Source: Terriglobia bacterium (GTDB taxonomy: Bacteria; Acidobacteriota; Terriglobia; Acidiferrales; UBA7541). From it: DNA of 64,000 bases. The DNA lies in contig OY968796.1 of NCBI GenBank assembly GCA_963695545.1, positions 2,912,001 through 2,976,000 of the forward strand, written 5' to 3'. Both the position numbers and the translations under genes were made by a program. The first letter of the stretch is position 1; each line of letters begins with the position of its first letter. This document shows positions 18,509 to 64,000 of this stretch, one piece after another. Below the pieces are notes generated by a model. It was not told where the DNA came from, did no database searches, and worked only from the letters and a program-made list of their open reading frames with translations.

Positions 18509-18651
18509 CGCGCACCTCCGGTGCTGTAAGGGCAGTTTACCGCTGGCGGGCGCGTGGGAACAAGGCGCGCGCCGCGCTTGTGAGAACTCTATGATTGCAG
18601 GGGACTTCGGAATTTCGGGGCGGCGGGCGGCTAACGACAGACGGAAACGTG

Positions 18652-43162: not shown

Positions 43163-43709
43163 GGCGGGCAGGCCGGGCGATCGCTGGGTTGGTTTCTTAG
43201 CAATAGGGAACTGGCCGGGAGGAAAGTCCGGACACCGTGGACTCGGGCCGCAAGGTCCGAACCTAAGGGCAACGCGCCTGGTAACGCCAGGGCGCCGGGC
43301 CGCAGAAATCGGGCGCGCAATGCGCGCCTGGGCGGAACGGCGACGGACAGTGCCACAGAAAATAAACCGCCGGTGCGGCGTTTCGGTGACGGCCGGGAGG
43401 AAAAACCTCTCGGAGGTCGCTATCAAAAATAGACGACGCGCATGGTAAGGGTGAAACGGTGGGGTAAGAGCCCACCGCGTCTCGAGAGATCGAGACGGCA
43501 CGGAAAACCCCGCGTGGTGCAAGGCCAAATAGGAGGGGAGGGCCGGCCCGGCCCGCAAGCGACGCATTCTTCGGAATGCGACGCCGTGACCCTCGGGTAG
43601 GCTGCTGGAGCCCGCGTGCGAATGCGGGCCTAGAGGAATGATTGCCACGGCGTGCGATTCTTTAGGGGATCGCGCGCCGCACAAAATCCGGCTTACAGGC
43701 CTGTCCGCC
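43163..43709 (+). ncRNA. rnpB: RNase P RNA (type A, extended)
   Basis: GAGGAAAGTCCGG and ACAAAATCCGGCTTA (P4 strands), AGTGCCACAGAAA, GGGTGAAACGG, GGTAAGAGC; P1 ends GGCGGGCAGGCC/GGCCTGTCCGCC; TATAAT at 43151. Confidence 0.97.
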
Positions 43710-43814
43710 ATCTTCTTTCGCCTCGGTTGAGGTTTGCTCCCGCGCGTTTCTTTTGTCCCCGATGTGTGCCGGCTGCGGGCGAAATCTTGCTTGCGAAACT
43801 CCATTTTGCTGGGG

Positions 43815-44270: not shown

Positions 44271-44358
44271 GGCGGGAAGCGAATCTGGAAAGCGAACTCA
44301 CCATCCTTTGCTTCGCAAAAGATGAACCGCCCTCGGGCCAAAGGCTGATCCACCCGCC
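44271..44358. repeat. GGCGGG...ACCCGCC-bounded palindromic element (divergent family A member)
   Basis: Ends AAGGCTGATCCACCCGCC; internal hairpin CATCCTTTGC-TTC-GCAAAAGATG. Confidence 0.55.
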
Positions 44359-44495
44359 ATTACTCAATTTCGAGTGTTCAATTTTGCTCATCCTGCATGT
44401 GGTCAATTTTGGTCATCTAGACGGGTTTGTCCCACGGGTCTACGATTGCCGGGCGCTGGGCAAGTTTTCTGAGTTGATTGAAGGAGCACACCCGA

Positions 44496-45167
44496 ATGCC
44501 GAGTAAGCGCAGTCTCGGTGTCAGTCACGCAGCTCTCCGCAAAAAGTTCCGCAACGGGATGACTTATCGGAATTACCGAGACAAGGAGGTCGTCTTTTCG
44601 CAGGGGGATCCGGCTGATTCTGTTTTCTACGTCGAAAGCGGGACGGTAAAGCTGACGGCGGTTTCTACTCGAAAGAAAGCCATAATCGCCATCCTACAGC
44701 GAGGCAGTTTTTTTGGCGAAGGAAGTCTAACCGGGCAAGCTCTACGGATTTGCACGGCGAGATCAATTGGGCAATCCAACGTCATTCGACTGCAAAAGCA
44801 GAGGATGGCTCGCGTGCTCAAGAGAGACCCGCGCTTTGCAGCGCTGTTCGTCGGATATTTACTTTCGCGGGTGGTTCGAATCGAGGAAGACCTGATCGAT
44901 CAATTCTTCAATTTCAGCGAAAGGCGATTGGCGCGGGTTCTGTTGTTGTTTGGCGAAATAACCAAGGAATCGAAGTCGGATTCCCCTCTGAAGGTGAGCC
45001 AATCAACCCTGGCGGAGATGGTTGGTACCACCCGCCCGCGGGTAAGTAAATTCATGAACGAGTTTAAGAGGAAGGGCTTGGTCAGTTACAACGGAGGCTT
45101 GCAAATAAATAGCGCACTGCTCATAGCGTTCCTAGAAAATCGCCCGATGTCCGTCAAGAGATCATAG
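44496..45167 (+). CDS. Crp/Fnr family transcriptional regulator
   Basis: F.QGD.AD, G.FFGE, C-terminal HTH LAEMVGTTRPRVS; AAGGAG RBS. Confidence 0.92.
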   Translation: MPSKRSLGVSHAALRKKFRNGMTYRNYRDKEVVFSQGDPADSVFYVESGTVKLTAVSTRKKAIIAILQRGSFFGEGSLTGQALRICTARSIGQSNVIRLQKQRMARVLKRDPRFAALFVGYLLSRVVRIEEDLIDQFFNFSERRLARVLLLFGEITKESKSDSPLKVSQSTLAEMVGTTRPRVSKFMNEFKRKGLVSYNGGLQINSALLIAFLENRPMSVKRS

Positions 45168-45215
45168 GTCCAGCCAGGTGGTCCCGGCTTTTCACACCAT
45201 GACCGTCGGACCGCG

Positions 45216-45590
45216 ATGCAGTGGAGTCAAGAGATGAAAATACAACACCAAACAAAAAAGGGAATATCTGCCGTGCCCTGTCCTACGTGTGGCGTCGCTG
45301 CCGGGAAGCGCTGCGTTCTGATCGCGGGCGGCCCACGAAACGAGCCACACTGGAACCGAAGGATCGCGGCGGCTGATGTTGTGGAAAAAGAAGAGGATTC
45401 GAACTCACCGATGAGACTCCGAAACGTGCCCTTCGCCCAAAAGAATAGAAGAGAGAAAAAATCGGACGCTGCATTCTTGGCGCTAATAGCCCGGGTGAGA
45501 AAGGAACTTGCGAGACCGCTGCTTACGAAGTCAGTCAGAGAGAGACGGCGGCAGAGGGACAGATCGAATCATGGAACGCAGATTAGTTGA
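45216..45590 (+). CDS. Hypothetical basic protein with CxxC-x7-C...H zinc-finger-like motif
   Basis: CPTCGVAAGKRC...PHWNR. Confidence 0.5.
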   Translation: MQWSQEMKIQHQTKKGISAVPCPTCGVAAGKRCVLIAGGPRNEPHWNRRIAAADVVEKEEDSNSPMRLRNVPFAQKNRREKKSDAAFLALIARVRKELARPLLTKSVRERRRQRDRSNHGTQIS

Positions 45591-46386
45591 GCTTCGACAG
45601 CCCGGCTTTGAGGGATGGGTGTGCAGTGAGTGTGGGCACGTGTTCATAACGATGTTGGATTGCGTTCCCACTGGTCTGACGCTGGACGAGATTATCGGCC
45701 ATTTCAAAGTGCTGCGAGAGCAGGCTTTCGCCAAGCATCGGTGCCCGAGTTCTTGGGAAAGCCGAGGTTATCGAGAGACTGAAGTGGAAATCAGCAAAGC
45801 GAAAGCTGAACGCATGGGTTTGGACGGGTGGCCTGACCCGCCGAACAGTCAGTCTGCGCCGTATGAAAATCGCTCAGGCGTGATGGCGATGCCACACCAA
45901 ATCAACGCGAAGGAAGAGGAGAGGGTTTGTGCCGCCAAGGAGTATTGCGAAGGGTACGCCTACGGGGTTTGTGAGGGACGACGGTGTTCGGCGCCCAAAG
46001 CTGACGCAGGCCAACCTTCGTATCGAGCTGGATTCGCCAGGGGCGTCACCGCCGCGCAACGGACCAGACAGGGCGAATCATCCGCGGCGGGCGGCTCAAA
46101 AGATATCGCCTCTGACGCAGTTCGCCGTCCGGGGGACGATCGTAGGCCGCTGGCCCAAACTCTTACGGAAGAGCAGTCGAACGGAGGGCAATTCCCGCAG
46201 CGTGGTATCGGGGCGAGCGCAGAAAAAGGGTGGCAAGATATTTTACTGGAGCTGTACCGTCGCCTCCTATTGTTTGAAGACTTAGCCATTCTTGCAGCAG
46301 AGGAAGAGGCGGCGATCGAAGTCGTCCGCGCTGGAATCGTTAAGCGCCTCGCGAAAACCTGCGTGGTGCTGCCTATACCGGGATAA
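45571..46386 (+). CDS. Hypothetical protein with N-terminal W.CSEC...F..H.C module; possibly a read-through of two ORFs
   Basis: ORF track; a family-A-like half-site lies inside it at ~45822-45842. Confidence 0.45.
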   Translation: MERRLVELRQPGFEGWVCSECGHVFITMLDCVPTGLTLDEIIGHFKVLREQAFAKHRCPSSWESRGYRETEVEISKAKAERMGLDGWPDPPNSQSAPYENRSGVMAMPHQINAKEEERVCAAKEYCEGYAYGVCEGRRCSAPKADAGQPSYRAGFARGVTAAQRTRQGESSAAGGSKDIASDAVRRPGDDRRPLAQTLTEEQSNGGQFPQRGIGASAEKGWQDILLELYRRLLLFEDLAILAAEEEAAIEVVRAGIVKRLAKTCVVLPIPG

Positions 46387-46596
46387 TTTCCCTGCAACAG
46401 CAATGCAACGAGCCCGAGTGAGGCGCCGCCTCCGTCATTGCATGGGTCACAGTTCCAAAGAAAGCGACGGAAATTGTGACGTACCTTCAGGCTTTGGCGC
46501 GTCGTGTGACGCGCTGGATGAGAAAAGATGCCAGCCTGGGGCCCGGCGCGGCGAGGGCGGCCTCGGAGGCGTGCGGCGGGAATGCGTGAAGCCTCG

Positions 46597-46699
46597 TGTC
46601 GCCGTTACGGGGCTCAAAGAAAACATTTGGGGAGGGTGGGGCGGGTCGGCCTACGCAGAGCTTACGCCCTGGGCTAAGCTCTGCCGCCCCTGCGGCGCT
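46597..46699. repeat. REP-like composite element
   Basis: Two imperfect TG(T/C)CGCC...CGG.GCT units flanking CAGAGCTTACGCCCTGGGCTAAGCTCTG. Confidence 0.6.
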
Positions 46700-46812
46700 T
46701 GTCATCGAGTGGGGAGCGCGATTTTGGCCTGTAATGTCTGGGTGGTGAGTTGGTGTTGCGGGCTGACGCGAACGCGAATGAGTTGGCGCGGTTTCCCGCA
46801 TGAAGACAAGAT

Positions 46813-46835
46813 GGAGGCCTGAAGGCCTCCGCTAC
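46813..46835 (-). repeat. GTAG-type REP
   Basis: Reverse complement GTAGC-GGAGGCC-TTCA-GGCCTCC. Confidence 0.65.
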
Positions 46836-46868
46836 GTAAACCTCGGCGATCGTGCCAAAGATTTACCG

Positions 46869-46983
46869 GGCGGGTGGTACACGCTTCCGCGAGCTTGAGC
46901 ATTTTCGGTCTCGGCGCGCGGGTTACACCACTAGCCATCTCTACGTTGGAGTAACATTGCGCGTCAAAGGCTGCGCCGCGCGC
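46869..46983. repeat. Family A ~116 bp element, copy A1
   Basis: Ungapped alignment to A2, 88/115 identical by hand count. Confidence 0.85.
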
Positions 46984-47097
46984 TTGGCTGGAGGCTTGAA
47001 AACTTACAAAGTCAGATGTAAATTATCGGCCGCTTGGGAGGTCGAAACGCAAATTCCGGCTCAGATCATTGTCAGCGCAGTGTCGTGGCTCGTGGCG

Positions 47098-47544
47098 ATG
47101 TCTTTCGCGGCCGTGTGGGGCGCGCACCTCTACCAAACGACGGTTCTCTTTCCGGCGTGGGTCTCTGAGCTTCCGAAATCCCTGATCGAATGGCTCGCGA
47201 CTCCGTATTCGATGAGGGTTCCCGGATTTTACCGAAGGGTTCTGGGCGTCCTTTATACCTTCGCGACGATCGCGGTGATTGTCGCGGTCGTGACGGGCCT
47301 GCGAATGCGGCTGGGCCTGGGGATCGCAGGCGTTTGCGGGCTTATCCACCTAGCGCTGAACTTGCTGATCTTCCTACCTACGAACCTGAAGCTCGGCCTT
47401 GACCCCGGGGGACCCGGCGCATCGAGTCTCGATCCGCAGGTGGTTAAGATGCTGGTCCGACGGTGGGGCGGATGGAACTTCGTGCGTCTCGGCGTCGAGA
47501 CGGCAGGATTGATCGCGGCGCTCTTCGCGGTCAAAGCTTCATAG
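47098..47544 (+). CDS. Membrane protein, DUF1772/anthrone oxygenase-like
   Basis: P.W, F.P.N and W..WN.VR motifs; the GGGAGG RBS precedes an in-frame ACG at 47047, so the start is uncertain. Confidence 0.6.
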   Translation: MSFAAVWGAHLYQTTVLFPAWVSELPKSLIEWLATPYSMRVPGFYRRVLGVLYTFATIAVIVAVVTGLRMRLGLGIAGVCGLIHLALNLLIFLPTNLKLGLDPGGPGASSLDPQVVKMLVRRWGGWNFVRLGVETAGLIAALFAVKAS

Positions 47545-47600
47545 AGAAACATCTGATTGACGATCGTCCCAGATGCCAAGTCCGGACGAACGGGGTAGGT

Positions 47601-47672
47601 CCTGATACGTCGGATTTCAGGACATCTGCCGTGGCCGCGGATTCCACTTCTCCGGTTGGCGCATTAGTCAGG
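47601..47672. repeat. Family B 72 bp attC-like palindromic site, copy B1
   Basis: Ungapped alignment to 49026-49097, 49/72 identical by hand count. Confidence 0.75.
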
Positions 47673-47778
47673 CGCTAAGCAGGCCGCCCCCATGGAAAAT
47701 GAGGTTTGCGCGTGACTGGCACCGGGATTCAGAGTAGATTCCGTGCCTTCCGGGAACCCGCAAACCGAGGAGAAAAAG

Positions 47779-48270
47779 ATGAAATATACGATTCGTCTTG
47801 CATGTGCGGTTGTTGCTTTTGCGGCAGTAACCATCCCTGTCCATGCGCAAATGAAATACTCTTGGACCACGCATTGCGCGACGACCCCTATATTCCAAAC
47901 TGTGCCTGCAAGTGAACACGGAGGCGTTCAGATCCAGGTCGCGTTGGGACCAATAGAAACATGCAGCGTCACGGGAAGCATGGGTGCAACGCCAATCAAA
48001 GAGAGCGAGTATGCCAACTACAATGAACTCGTGGGAAACCAAGTCAGAATATGGGGTGTGAAGGTGATGACGTTAGCCACTGGCGACAAGGTTTATGCCA
48101 TATACGGGGGTGTTCGGAATATCTCACAGACAACCTACACCCAGACCTATCAGATAACGGGCGGCACCGGCAAGATGCAAGGCATCAAAGGTTCCGGCGT
48201 ATGCACGAGCACCAACGCCGCTGACATGAGCGCGACCTCATCGTGCACCGGTTCCTACACACTCCCTTAA
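47779..48270 (+). CDS. Exported beta-rich hypothetical protein (I.GGTG...G..G.G, dirigent/allene-oxide-cyclase-like barrel)
   Basis: Signal peptide, GAGGAG RBS, lower-GC codon usage. Confidence 0.75.
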   Translation: MKYTIRLACAVVAFAAVTIPVHAQMKYSWTTHCATTPIFQTVPASEHGGVQIQVALGPIETCSVTGSMGATPIKESEYANYNELVGNQVRIWGVKVMTLATGDKVYAIYGGVRNISQTTYTQTYQITGGTGKMQGIKGSGVCTSTNAADMSATSSCTGSYTLP

Positions 48271-48273
48271 GCG

Positions 48274-48341
48274 CCTGACTACCTGGATCGGTGAGGAGCA
48301 CTACGAAGCTGGCACCTTTGGCGACTCGTCCGACGATCAGG
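48274..48341. repeat. Family B-related 68 bp site (B4)
   Basis: CCTGACTA...TCCGACGATCAGG; its ends are complementary to the ends of B1. Confidence 0.55.
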
Positions 48342-48356
48342 CTGATCGTTCGTCGC

Positions 48357-48472
48357 GGCGGGCGGCGCATCCTTCCGTGAGCGTGTGGATTTTCGGTCTC
48401 GGCGCGCGGATGATGCCGCTGGCGAGCTTCACCTTGGAGTAGTGTTGCGCGTCAAAGGCCGCGCGACCCGCC
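48357..48472. repeat. Family A ~116 bp element, copy A2
   Basis: Terminal inverted repeat GGCGGGCGGCGCATCCTT / AAGGCCGCGCGACCCGCC. Confidence 0.85.
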
Positions 48473-48507
48473 AGTAGACGCAGTTTACTAAAGAAAAGGA
48501 GATTTCT

Positions 48508-48996
48508 ATGACACCCCAAGCCATCGATCTGCACATCAATCCATCCGACGAGACCATACGTCTCGGCCCGCTCGCGGTGCGCTTCTTGCTTACCGGAGAC
48601 AACTCGACGGGCAGCGTCGCAGCATTTGAGCTCATGGTACCGGGCGCGCAGCGCCTGATGGCTCCGGCGCACAGCCACGATCATTACGAGGAGACAATCT
48701 ACGGCATCGAAGGAACGTTGACCTGGACTGTGAACGGAAAGCAGATTGACGTCGGGCCGGGGCAGGCACTCTGCATTCCGCGAGGCGCCATCCACCGGTT
48801 CGACAACAACGGCAGCCAGGACGTGAAGGCGCTCTGCGTGATCACGCCAGCCGCGCTAGGTCCGCAGTTCTTCCGCGAGTCTGCCGAGGCAATCAACGCG
48901 GCGGCAGGTGGTCCGCCGGACCGAGCAAAGATGGCGGAGATCATGCGTCGCCACGGCCTCACTCCGGCTCCGCCCCCGCCGCCGCCCCAGGCGTAG
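48508..48996 (+). CDS. Cupin domain protein
   Basis: HSHDHYEE and PRGAIH.F.N cupin motifs; AAGGAG RBS. Confidence 0.9.
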   Translation: MTPQAIDLHINPSDETIRLGPLAVRFLLTGDNSTGSVAAFELMVPGAQRLMAPAHSHDHYEETIYGIEGTLTWTVNGKQIDVGPGQALCIPRGAIHRFDNNGSQDVKALCVITPAALGPQFFRESAEAINAAAGGPPDRAKMAEIMRRHGLTPAPPPPPPQA

Positions 48997-49025
48997 CGCC
49001 GGCAACTCGGTTGCGATTCCATTAG

Positions 49026-49097
49026 TCTGGTAAGTCGGATAACCGGACATCTCCGGAACCCGTGGATTTCGTTCGTACGGTAAGCGCGTTTATCAGG
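49026..49097. repeat. Family B 72 bp attC-like site, copy B2
   Basis: TCTGGTAA-GTCGGA-TAACCGG ... ACGGTAA-GCGCGT-TTATCAGG. Confidence 0.75.
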
Positions 49098-49164
49098 GGT
49101 TGACCGAGACCGGTTCGCATTGCGACGGTTCAGATTGCTGGACGACAGGTGTACATTGCCTTTC

Positions 49165-49365
49165 GTGACTAGGGACGACTGGTGGATTGCGGCGAAGATA
49201 CTTGTCGGCCTGCCTGTGCTGTTCTACGTCGTGCTATCGGTTCATGAGCGGCAAAGGGAGATATGGCGAAAACCGAAGAGAAAGGTACTAATTGCTTTCA
49301 TCGTTGCCTGGAGTTTAGTTTTGTGTTTCGCTGCGCTCGTTTTTGCTTGGAAGGCTCTTCGATAG
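49165..49365 (+). CDS. Small two-TM membrane protein (~66 aa)
   Basis: Two hydrophobic helices with a basic loop; TACATT -10-like box just before GTG. Confidence 0.55.
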   Translation: MTRDDWWIAAKILVGLPVLFYVVLSVHERQREIWRKPKRKVLIAFIVAWSLVLCFAALVFAWKALR

Positions 49366-49388
49366 AAGAGTCATGTCCCTACTTGGAG

Positions 49389-49417
49389 CCACCTCTCCGG
49401 TTACCGCGTTTATCAGG
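49389..49417. repeat. Family B right half-site (B3)
   Basis: CCACCTCTCCGGTTA-CCGCGT-TTATCAGG matches the B1/B2 right ends. Confidence 0.7.
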
Positions 49418-49500
49418 AGCTAGGTCGGCGAAGCCTATGCAGAGAAACGGCGCGCAGCCATATCGACGATATGATCGACGATATGGGAGACTTATATTCC

Positions 49501-50523
49501 ATGAAGAAAATTGGCTTCCTCTCGTTCGGTCATTGGGCGCCTTCACCGCAGTCACGAACGCAATCGGCGAGCGACGCGCTGCTGCAATCCATTGACATCG
49601 CCGTGGAGGCCGAGCGCCTCGGAATGGACGGTGCGTACTTTCGCGTTCATCACTTCGCGCAGCAACTGGCATCACCTTTTCCACTGCTCGCGGCGGTGGG
49701 TGCTAAGACTCGAAGGATTGAGATTGGCACCGCAGTGATCGATATGAGGTATGAAAATCCTCATTACATGGCGGAGGACGCTGGGTCCGCGGACCTGATC
49801 TCTGGCGGGCGACTCCAGTTGGGAATCAGCCGCGGTTCGCCCGAGCAAGTGATCGATGGTTGGCGCTATTTTGGCTATCAACCGATTAAAGGCGAGGACG
49901 ACGAAGGCATGGGCCGAAGACATGCCGAAGAGTTTCTTGAGTTGCTACGCGGAAAGGGCTTCGCTCAGCCTAACCCACGTCCGATGTTTGCCAATCCTCC
50001 GGGACTCCTGCGTCTTGAGCCATACTCTGCGGGATTGCGCGATCGAATTTGGTGGGGGTCGGCTTCCAACGCGACAGCGGTATGGGCCGCGAAGCTGGGA
50101 ATGAACCTGCAGTCGTCAACACTGAAATTCGACGAGACCGGCGAGCCGCTGCACATCCAACAGGCCGCACAGATTCGCGCCTTTCGCGCGGCCTGGAAGG
50201 ATGCGGGTCACAAGCGCACGCCGCGCATTTCTGTTAGCCGGAGTATTTTTGCGTTGGTTGATGACCGTGATCGCCGCTATTTCGGACGAGGCTCCGAGGA
50301 GGAGGACAAAATCGGATTCCTTGACGAAAATACGCGGGCGATCTTCGGTCGCAGCTACGCTGCCGAGCCAGATATTCTGATCGAGCAGCTTAGGGGAGAC
50401 CAGGCGATCGCTGAGGCTGACACGCTGTTGCTAACCATTCCGAATCAACTAGGTGTCGCGTATAACGCGCACGTGATGGAGGCAATTCTGACTACCGTCG
50501 CTCCAGCCCTCGGTTGGCGCTAA
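49501..50523 (+). CDS. LLM-class (luciferase-like) flavin-dependent oxidoreductase
   Basis: IGFLSFGHW, RVHHFA, IEIGTAVIDMRYENP, GRLQLGISRG motifs. Confidence 0.92.
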   Translation: MKKIGFLSFGHWAPSPQSRTQSASDALLQSIDIAVEAERLGMDGAYFRVHHFAQQLASPFPLLAAVGAKTRRIEIGTAVIDMRYENPHYMAEDAGSADLISGGRLQLGISRGSPEQVIDGWRYFGYQPIKGEDDEGMGRRHAEEFLELLRGKGFAQPNPRPMFANPPGLLRLEPYSAGLRDRIWWGSASNATAVWAAKLGMNLQSSTLKFDETGEPLHIQQAAQIRAFRAAWKDAGHKRTPRISVSRSIFALVDDRDRRYFGRGSEEEDKIGFLDENTRAIFGRSYAAEPDILIEQLRGDQAIAEADTLLLTIPNQLGVAYNAHVMEAILTTVAPALGWR

Positions 50524-50543
50524 ATCGCCGCCAGATTTGCCGG

Positions 50544-50654
50544 GGCGGGCGGCGCAGCCTTCCGTGAGCGTGTGCAGTTGCGGTTGCCGCGCGCGGATGA
50601 TGCTACTTGCGACCTTCATCCTGGGCAACATTGCGCGTCAAATGCCGCGCCGCC
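50544..50654. repeat. Family A ~116 bp element, copy A3
   Basis: GGCGGGCGGCGCAGCCTTCCGTGAGCGTGTG...TTGCGCGTCAAA shared with A1/A2. Confidence 0.85.
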
Positions 50655-63178: not shown

Positions 63179-63384
63179 GATTTGAATAATTCTAACGAGA
63201 CGCATGAATCACCGATGATACCGCGCGCGTTAAGCGCGAATCAAATGCGCGGCCCACCGGAGTTCCAGGAGTTGTTCCGGCGCACAAACACAGATGCGCG
63301 CGGCGTTCGCGGCGTTGCCGGGGCGGACGCGTCCGCGCTGGATTTCCCCCGTGGCCAAACGAGATATCCTCCCGACGAGCCCCG

Positions 63385-63810
63385 TTTCGAATGAATTTCC
63401 ACAGCCTATTCGAATAACCCACAAGTAATCGTTGACTGCTAGTTTGCAAGTCTGCTATCATTCAGCATGAGTTGCAAACGCCCGCCCTCGCCCCTGTCAG
63501 GGTCCCGGCCCATTCCTCGGGCGTCGGGGTTTCCGCATGCAGGAGCCGGAGCCTGCCTGCCGGCAGGCAGGCTTGTCTCCGCCCGCTTTTCCATCCCTGC
63601 CAAACATGATCGATACAATCCAATCGAGCCGCACTTATCTGCGCAAAAGTGCCCCTCCAACCCTTTTATTTTCAGCGGATTGCAAAAGAGTGCGTATCTC
63701 GTTGAAAATAATCGCGATCAAGTGGCTTTATCTTCACACTCATCCGCACTCTTTCGCCGCATCCACTTTATTTTCAATATTTTAACAAAAACATACCGGG
63801 GGTATATATA
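63385..63810 (+). repeat. Dispersed promoter-bearing element, copy C4
   Basis: Two TTCGAA boxes; TTGACT(63432)-N18-TATCAT(63456); ATG 63467; ends AAAACATACCGGGGGTATATA. Confidence 0.85.
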
Positions 63811-64000
63811 CGTCTCACCGACCGCCGACCTAAGACATTACTTGAAGTTTGCGCGCCTCTACCCGGAAACCTCGGCCCATCAATCCCTTACGGCGCCTCA
63901 TTCGCGGCGACGCGATCGCCGCAGCGCGAGCAGCGCCAGCAACTCGCCAATGCCACTCGCCCCGCCCGCAGAGCCACCCGCGCGGCATGCTAAGATTCCC

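Follow-up and report, generated by a model that had tools for sequence, protein, structure and literature searches.

Positions 44271 to 50654 of the window, the whole 64,000-nucleotide stretch of a Terriglobia bacterium genome analysed here, raise the question of whether a row of short genes behind rnpB constitutes a gene cassette array and, if so, which sites and which enzyme recombine it. The source genome (G000) is a single contig of 4.16 Mb with a completeness of 93.8%, in which the window corresponds to G000:C1:2912001-2976000; the relatives used for comparison are 201 family genomes (G codes), and extracted loci carry L codes. The first-pass annotation had proposed an array of eight cassettes, separated by two families of palindromic sites, A and B, and served in trans by a recombinase. 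Judged from comparative sequence data, positions 46983-50544 are probably a decayed array of five single-gene cassettes, the B sites of which are likely the substrate of a dedicated tyrosine recombinase of Xer-like type, not found in G000, and the A sites are gene-less copies of an unrelated element with a repetitive extragenic palindrome (REP)-associated tyrosine transposase (RAYT) that seem to have cut into it.

All eight open reading frames (ORFs) are present on the forward strand, and the array starts directly at the end of the repeat element C3, behind rnpB, as had been described. The product calls agree with profile matches for Crp/Fnr, the PF24623 Zn-finger, the cupin and the LLM-class oxidoreductase, the DUF1772 match being just below threshold (27.2 bits, cut-off 27.3). 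The mean GC content is low (57.3%, the 5th percentile of the genome, with 59.7 and 60.6% in the flanks), but the DUF1772 (61%) and cupin (65%) genes are not GC-poor. A sites, B sites and REPs were found between the ORFs, but neither A nor B occurs between the Crp gene and the two Zn-motif ORFs; of the eight supposed cassettes, the right five genes are cassette-like whereas the left three form one module. Neither a tyrosine recombinase nor a Y1 transposase was detected in the window, in line with the earlier remark that it holds no recombinase. Rfam gave no match for A, B or C, and PADLOC returned a weak cNMP-domain match for Crp and nothing else.

B sites and the cassettes between them

The B site consists of two inverted cores, arranged as outer arm, 6-bp spacer, inner arm, a linker of about 30 bp, inner arm, a different 6-bp spacer and outer arm, a grammar derived from 474 left and 447 right unique cores. 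The left core has the outer arm CCTGATWA, the inner arm TTACCGG and the spacers GTCGGA (234 cores), GTCGCG (99) or GTCGGG (59), and the right core has the inverse arms and the spacers CCGCGT (200), GCGCGT (111) or CGGCGT (59), with a spacer-to-spacer distance within the site of mostly 45-50 bp. Cargo sits between outer arms, and a recombinase gene is found between inner arms, in the linker slot. An arm-6 bp-arm form is that of Xer-type sites, as described in the available parts of bioRxiv 2022.12.17.520857. Three B sites are present in the window, all on the forward strand: B1 (47597-47676; left core spacer 47609-47614, right core spacer 47659-47664) and B2 (49022-49101; spacers 49034-49039 and 49084-49089) are complete, and B3 (49392-49421; spacer 49404-49409) has the right core only and forms the left breakpoint of the LLM cassette. 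They score 27-42 bits with position weight matrices, against controls that never exceed 4 bits.

Among the relatives, the right-core pattern was detected in 93 of 201 genomes, compared with two for a control pattern. Genome G458 has the most sites (71 right-core matches, 108 allowing two mismatches), and these divide small genes at 0.4-1.5 kb intervals across tens of kb; the array genes there include homologs of the window Zn-finger and a more distant Crp. Consecutive sites were co-oriented in 545 cases and not in 15 (overlapping loci not removed). The unique cassettes of relatives (n = 223) have a median length of 870 bp and contain one called gene in 167 cases, as judged with a crude gene caller, and their largest gene runs along the site direction in 105 and against it in 116, so that the shared forward strand of the window genes, taken in the first-pass annotation as a property of the array, does not hold as a rule of the system. 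Public records with the B motif are nearly all from Acidobacteriota, many of them Candidatus Acidiferrales, and in a sample of 300 genomes of the phylum the left-core pattern occurred in two genomes besides G000, so that the family is lineage-restricted. Viral contigs had no match to three B patterns. A search of mainly open literature, supplements excluded, found no description of such sites. The B system is real and apparently undescribed, and the window locus is an enzyme-less, worn member of it.

Regarding the individual cassettes, all on the forward strand, four window genes have copies 75-92% identical in other genera. The first cassette is a DUF1772/anthrone-oxygenase-like gene of uncertain start (47023-47544; profile match), the copy of which in G369 is 89% identical and covers 46983-47597, beginning where A1 ends and reaching the edge of B1. 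The second (47779-48270) encodes an exported small beta-barrel-like protein of no named family. The cupin gene of the third (48508-48996; profile match) has copies 84-92% identical in relatives, two of which reach the left core of B2 and end there. The fourth encodes a two-helix membrane peptide of 66 amino acids (49165-49365), and its 62.5% identical homolog in G566 has a B right core in front. The fifth is the LLM-class oxidoreductase gene (49501-50523; profile match): among its copies in other genera (86-93% identical), 13 were at least 86% identical, one of these was cut by a contig end, and in seven of the 12 used (six genomes) the shared DNA begins at 49404-49408, within the spacer of B3, the preceding DNA being different. 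The order LLM-cupin in G391 and G402 is the reverse of that in the window, and in G402 left cores lie between its genes.

Breakpoints in the window are located in B sites and at A ends, and gene content was not conserved in the two closest congeners, where the interval from rnpB to the conserved right flank is occupied by different genes and repeats, both assemblies breaking there. Together with the attC result given below, this decides all three conditions that the first-pass annotation had named as refuting its reading in favour of that reading. None of these cassette genes was detected in the five congeners searched. Synteny in same-family genomes was uninformative because the metallo-beta-lactamase gene and rnpB are unlinked there. 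Beyond the window, 15 pairs of whole cassettes in relatives showed a change of partner at the right spacer in five and at the left spacer in two (one pair at both), of which one left-spacer change may be an insertion sequence (IS) insertion; the other nine pairs were unchanged at both spacers, mostly because one piece of DNA had been retrieved twice or because the shared block was longer.

Some further observations concern these sites and genes. A clean single-gene B cassette lies elsewhere in G000 (L063:8895-9588, genome positions 928894-929587), 88.5% identical to a cassette of G447 from spacer to spacer with both linkers different. The B linker often has a third imperfect palindrome with a 6-bp centre (e.g., L132, L288 and L346), perhaps an accessory binding site, and IS elements and an element of about 220 bp are inserted in B linkers and spacers. 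The IS elements are presumably IS110-like and IS30-like, going by the starts of their sequences. A 77-bp leader before the DUF1772 gene (46983-47060) has three further copies in G000 and one in G369, with no Rfam match. Scores far below zero led to the rejection of a supposed degenerate fourth B site (48271-48345) and of supposed B remnants next to A1 and A3.

A candidate recombinase and the host Xer alternative

A hidden Markov model (HMM) search of 288 B-related loci revealed one tyrosine recombinase with sites touching both sides, at L323, where two left cores are inverted with their inner arms facing the gene, so that the gene occupies the usual position of the linker. The protein aligns to XerD, with the catalytic motifs present and the insertion typical of IntI absent. 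Its family is large, with 7625 of 8000 scored candidates reaching an E-value of 1e-60 or below. A B core of at least 10 bits was located no more than 150 bp upstream or 100 bp downstream of 12 of the 17 homologs of at least 75% identity; excluding the two homologs found via the B search itself, a core lies beside 10 of 15, or seven of 15 at a threshold of at least 20 bits. Cores beside close homologs always have the inner arm facing the gene. As controls, a core was found beside four of 45 more distant homologs and in 7% of random windows. Several distant homologs have related cores with other spacers, as judged by eye. Among further family genomes the recombinase family was present in 17 of 80 searched (99 available), and in G442 (L424:6462-8980) the gene for a protein 92% identical to the window LLM protein is preceded, at a distance of 560 bp, by a homolog of the candidate with 65% identity.

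The recombinase was not found in G000 by tblastn, XerC and XerD being the sole matches (at the completeness given above, absence is unproven), nor in five congeners, and viral contigs yielded no confirmed recombinase locus. The array is therefore CALIN-like (a cluster of sites without its integrase) and, going by the assembled chromosome, action of the enzyme in trans is at present impossible; of the two kinds of enzyme that had been suggested to serve the array in trans, the candidate for the tyrosine recombinase, the Xer-like one, was not found, and RAYT is intact elsewhere in G000. Phage-type integrases near the ends of the G458 array were rejected as the enzyme, being at least 3.4 kb from the nearest site and not in a fixed geometry.

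Several results weigh against a dedicated recombinase acting on single-gene cassettes. In the 201 genomes the recombinase family occurs in 25 and its close clade in four, compared with 93 for the sites, so the enzyme is far rarer than what it would act on; G458, with the most sites, has a 75-codon fragment of the recombinase only, G000 has none detected, and the recombinase gene could itself be cargo. In the window, five of the 12 LLM copies begin at 49416-49485 and not in the B spacer, most of the other cupin copies end near the stop codon, with no break at B, and no scoring left core lies behind the barrel and LLM genes. The homologs of the barrel gene (24 loci, at most 44% identical) have no B sites at their ends except at one locus, so that its cassette status follows from position only. 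No B sites were seen at the ends of the Crp module homologs (19 loci), and the Crp and DUF1772 breakpoints at A-type ends are also natural ends of conserved leaders and have little proof value.

Taken with these reservations, the comparative data would fit the following mechanism. The enzyme would recombine double-stranded cores of like spacer type, left with left and right with right, so that a gene plus one linker could be excised and inserted in the same orientation; a single gene could be exchanged by two crossovers, and the two spacer types would stop both ends of one gene recombining together. Shared cassettes start and stop within spacers, where comparative evidence thus places the putative crossovers, and breakpoints in both spacer classes fit such double-stranded recombination between like cores, which predicts a constant orientation of sites and a free orientation of genes. 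Once the recombinase had disappeared, or had merely been a transient presence, the array would have decayed and RAYT-derived A elements would have been inserted, flanking DNA being lost by RAYT-dependent joining or by recombination between co-oriented A copies; the material would have gathered upstream of a C element, as elsewhere in G000. A wider proposal, possible but short of probable, is that soil Acidobacteriota run a natural cassette exchange with a dedicated Xer-like recombinase, two non-interchangeable cores per junction, stores of superintegron size (more than 100 junctions in one genome) and single-gene swaps by double crossover, independent of integrons and host Xer, to which RAYT in G000 would add a second, HUH-based joining at the same hotspots.

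Alternatively, the B sites may be pdif-like and recombined by host XerC/XerD, with the Xer-like gene between cores a passenger, which is considered unlikely. Both XerC and XerD are encoded in G000, B sites are far commoner than the candidate enzyme, and a layout of alternating inverted cores around one gene is that of a pdif module in the available parts of the description (10.1101/2022.12.17.520857). However, the candidate dif of G000 (3374119, minus strand, at the switch of GC skew and of FtsK-orienting polar sequences, identified by motif and position only) has in common with the B arms only the TAA-N6-TTA centre, and the XerD arm is the conserved arm across phyla according to the accessible portion of PMC3025954. 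In addition, the position of the candidate enzyme relative to the core is fixed in distance and orientation, and the more distant homologs of this enzyme accompany other core variants. The pdif/xrs modules of Acinetobacter plasmids, as far as the accessible text of 10.1101/2022.12.17.520857 describes them, resemble the B system in having genes between inversely repeated arm-spacer-arm sites and in being targeted by IS elements; unlike them, B sites have arms that differ from host dif, two fixed spacer classes and a fixed short linker module, and they form chromosomal arrays of dozens of sites with a dedicated recombinase gene between cores. One B cluster is located 4-9 kb from the candidate dif.

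A sites as derivatives of a RAYT element, and the comparison with integrons

The A sites A1 (46868-46983), A2 (48356-48472) and A3 (50543-50654), all on the forward strand, were delimited with an HMM on which they score 100-109 bits, the best control match (reversed genome) being 11 bits. At an E-value of 0.001 or below, 15 A copies were detected in G000, of which six are inverted repeats of about 170 bp around all three intact Y1 genes of this genome (1475752, 1478773 and 1198899). The three Y1 proteins are 87-100% identical, and both of those tested passed NF047646 (REP-associated tyrosine transposase). RAYT homologs are present in 105 of 201 family genomes, and among those of 30 loci that were listed, most have upstream of the gene an outer REP and an inner REP, separated by about 85 bp in which a -10-like box is conserved. 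The window copies retain the outer REP and the interior, that is, the conserved upstream region, and finish in the inverted outer REP found behind the RAYT genes of relatives. The foot before the hairpin is GTGG in A1 and most RAYT-flanking copies and GCGG in A2 and A3, and the hairpin is worn in most. BLAST with the A sequence found no match in 200 family genomes, and the HMM finds divergent copies beside RAYT genes.

The A copies are, on this sequence comparison, gene-less derivatives of a RAYT/TIRYT HUH element, comparable to miniature inverted-repeat transposable elements (MITEs) or REPINs, and not cassette sites of the B system. RAYT-like genes with long inverted repeats and solo repeat families, including an acidobacterial group, are described as TIRYT/TIRtrons in the available parts of PMC3733652, and cutting and rejoining of REP DNA by TnpA-REP in those of PMC6006769; the A element matches these systems and so belongs to a known kind. 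The earlier treatment of A and B as sites of one platform is thereby replaced by two unrelated systems, Xer-like for B and RAYT/TIRYT for A, and its notion of a CALIN-like array with a different recombinase fits the B sites but does not cover the A sites.

Regarding their position at gene boundaries, the homology of the next module to G369 begins at the end of A1 (46983). A2 replaces the -35/-10 region kept by relatives before the cupin gene, its end being the point where they keep this promoter, and A3 removes a 3' tail shared by relatives behind LLM, its start being the point where six of their LLM copies continue into that tail; in both cases the far side is unrelated. The A2 and A3 ends are junctions and not clean insertions, a pattern that agrees with joining by RAYT as well as with deletion between co-oriented copies. 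TIRtrons/TIRYT and REPtrons/RAYT with REPINs or bacterial interspersed mosaic elements are alike in that A forms a long inverted repeat around NF047646-type Y1 genes, as in the available parts of PMC3733652 and PMC6006769, and unlike in that solo A copies mark the joins between unrelated modules, which they truncate, a role not seen in those parts. The A junctions offer a testable case for RAYT roles beyond REP copying.

These junctions raise a further alternative, in which RAYT itself is the capture machine, cutting at A ends and joining foreign single-stranded DNA, with the B sites passive. Three intact RAYT genes in G000, A ends that coincide with cupin and LLM breakpoints with non-contiguous flanks, the co-orientation of both solo-A clusters of G000 and the cutting and rejoining of REP DNA by TnpA-REP (PMC6006769, available parts) speak for it. 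Nevertheless, this reading is very unlikely: it leaves unexplained the breakpoints in B spacers and the A-free B arrays of relatives, 200 of whose genomes contain no BLAST match to A, the same junctions are expected from deletion between co-oriented A copies, and the co-orientation of two clusters of three would arise by chance once in 16.

Other observations on A in G000 concern neighbouring loci. At 1476480-1478580 (L001:6480-8580), 2.1 kb of DNA between two near-identical tandem RAYT elements contain a C-terminal RHS-core fragment broken at the A end, possibly a composite unit or a captured fragment. The second solo-A cluster (1710452-1713542, L002:4450-7550) has three co-oriented solo copies behind a C element. 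Its genes are encoded by the other strand and lie downstream of the -10-like box within A, which may make A a portable promoter. Another inverted-repeat family, of the GGGGACAG type, surrounds a different Y1 gene (L001:4515-4900, L039:920-960 and L056:8570-8650) and is also found where congeners G003 and G004 have their rnpB hotspot.

With B separated from A, a divergent attC remains to be considered, in which both cores fold into one single-strand hairpin for an IntI-like enzyme. Two stems around an unpaired region look attC-like, the right core contains GTT, most mapped breakpoints are at the right core, and the barrel gene is framed by a matching 12-bp inverted repeat (47664-47675 and 48271-48282). 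That repeat had first suggested an integron-type hairpin logic, for which the family-wide covariation test gave no support: arms do not covary within sites (n = 245) or cassettes (n = 228) relative to within-locus shuffles (p 0.10-0.98). B1 and B2 do not form a long attC-like hairpin (z -0.6 to -1.2), and together these two results argue against an integron route. The GTT moreover has no AAC partner, breakpoints fall at left cores too, gene orientation is random, and IntI (TIGR02249) was above cut-off in none of five genomes (G000, G458, G453, G504 and G018). As had been stated, the strict RYYYAAC..GTTRRRY pair is absent from both strands, a relaxed scan giving a single pair inside the LLM coding sequence. 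Thus the B sites do not behave as attC by motif scan, arm covariation or folding, an attC origin is highly improbable, and they appear to be neither attC nor the dif of G000.

Integrons, including sedentary chromosomal arrays and CALINs (clusters of attC without intI), are nevertheless the closest in appearance, since B arrays are likewise long, co-oriented and made of mostly single-gene cassettes of 0.6-1.3 kb, with an order that varies between genomes, exist without an enzyme and have IS elements inserted at sites. They differ in lacking an attC motif or hairpin covariation, in having two crossover points per junction and genes in either direction, and in an enzyme without the IntI insertion. 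A gene between two sites with different spacers is also the layout of an engineering method, recombinase-mediated cassette exchange with heterospecific lox sites; the likeness is one of layout only, and B sites are natural and arrayed. By the tests applied, the B system appears to be neither integron nor pdif module, yet to work like both. These findings point to gene capture on the scale of sedentary integrons within a phylum that is among the most abundant in soil, by a system that attC-based tools are not expected to detect; a candidate enzyme and two orthogonal cores are named and directly testable, and the arrays provide a ready list of small accessory genes. The weight of this evidence rests on relatives, the window locus itself being worn and enzyme-less.

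C elements, the left module and the surroundings of the locus

C3 (43810-44273, minus strand; -35 box 44220-44215, start codon 44185) is a copy of a genome-wide repeat of about 450 bp. Its right end is a consensus sigma70-type promoter directed into the element, and the island lies upstream of this promoter. On the same promoter-upstream side, 13 of the 15 A copies and most B clusters are located no more than 7 kb from a C element, and GC content is lower in 35 of 41 complete C copies. C marks hotspots, and a role as recombination site is unsupported.

To the right of C3, the first feature is a remnant of the downstream end of a RAYT element (44291-44360, plus strand), an inner REP hairpin and outer REP with the same motifs behind RAYT homologs of relatives (direct repeat D10). 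The three-gene module that follows (44361-45750, plus strand) contains Crp/Fnr (44496-45167), the PF24623 Zn-finger from 45234 and a CxxC protein of about 60 amino acids from 45571, the frame of which extends to 46386 without homology in the extension; the two Zn ORFs are homologous over about 60 residues only. The three genes move as one block, and no B site is located within or next to them in the window, which makes the trio, as far as sequence can tell, one module without B sites that would have joined the locus separately from the B cassettes. Two repeats follow, R1, a REP-like repeat (46596-46702, plus strand) with 30 genome copies and a weak Acido-Lenti-1 match (RF01687, 28.6 bits, below the gathering score of 37), and R2, a GTAG-footed REP (46807-46839, minus strand) with 56 genome copies.

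The idea that the whole locus is an ordinary variable spot, in which REPs, MITEs and transferred genes accumulate without a site-specific system, draws on congeners with other repeats and other genes at the same spot, on the one-sided accumulation of accessory low-GC DNA at 35 of 41 C elements and on the worn B sites of the window, but is barely credible as a general account, being largely refuted for B, as passive accumulation does not predict seven of 12 LLM breaks inside a 6-bp spacer, long co-oriented arrays or a fixed recombinase-core geometry, and is the best account for the Crp module and the REPs.

Long pieces of the window, in public contigs assembled from three soil runs of one study, are matched, e.g., 46808-49450 letter for letter; since these runs may be the source sample, such short-read contigs give no independent support. 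In contigs of two runs, four letters are lacking at 47876 in the barrel gene, which would shift its frame; this may be a strain variant or an assembly difference. Contigs of four runs contained no trustworthy excision joint; one record linking 49050 to 49403 was rejected because it carries a different linker, being probably a B site of another organism.

The conserved left flank is rnpB, the RNase P RNA gene (43165-43711, plus strand; Rfam RF00010, 210.8 bits). The C element occurs at about 107 places in the genome, also near 18650, 35850 and 63380-63812 of the window, with a spacing far more even than chance (coefficient of variation of gaps 0.57 versus 0.95; none of 10,000 random sets as low). 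The window copies have no Rfam match, and an RNAalifold consensus of 16 C copies contained one 4-bp hairpin only. C right ends have a conserved sigma70-type promoter with an upstream palindrome, directed inward in 62 of 63, a pattern present in G003 and G004 too. An ATG or GTG lies five bases past the -10 box in 51 of 62 right ends, and frames of at least 98 codons follow the promoter in 50 of 62, versus 35% for random start codons; as proteins these frames are little conserved, and short DNA motifs recur at their far end. From the C3 promoter, the minus-strand frame (44185-41651) is open through rnpB antisense into the metallo-beta-lactamase gene as one 851-codon ORF.

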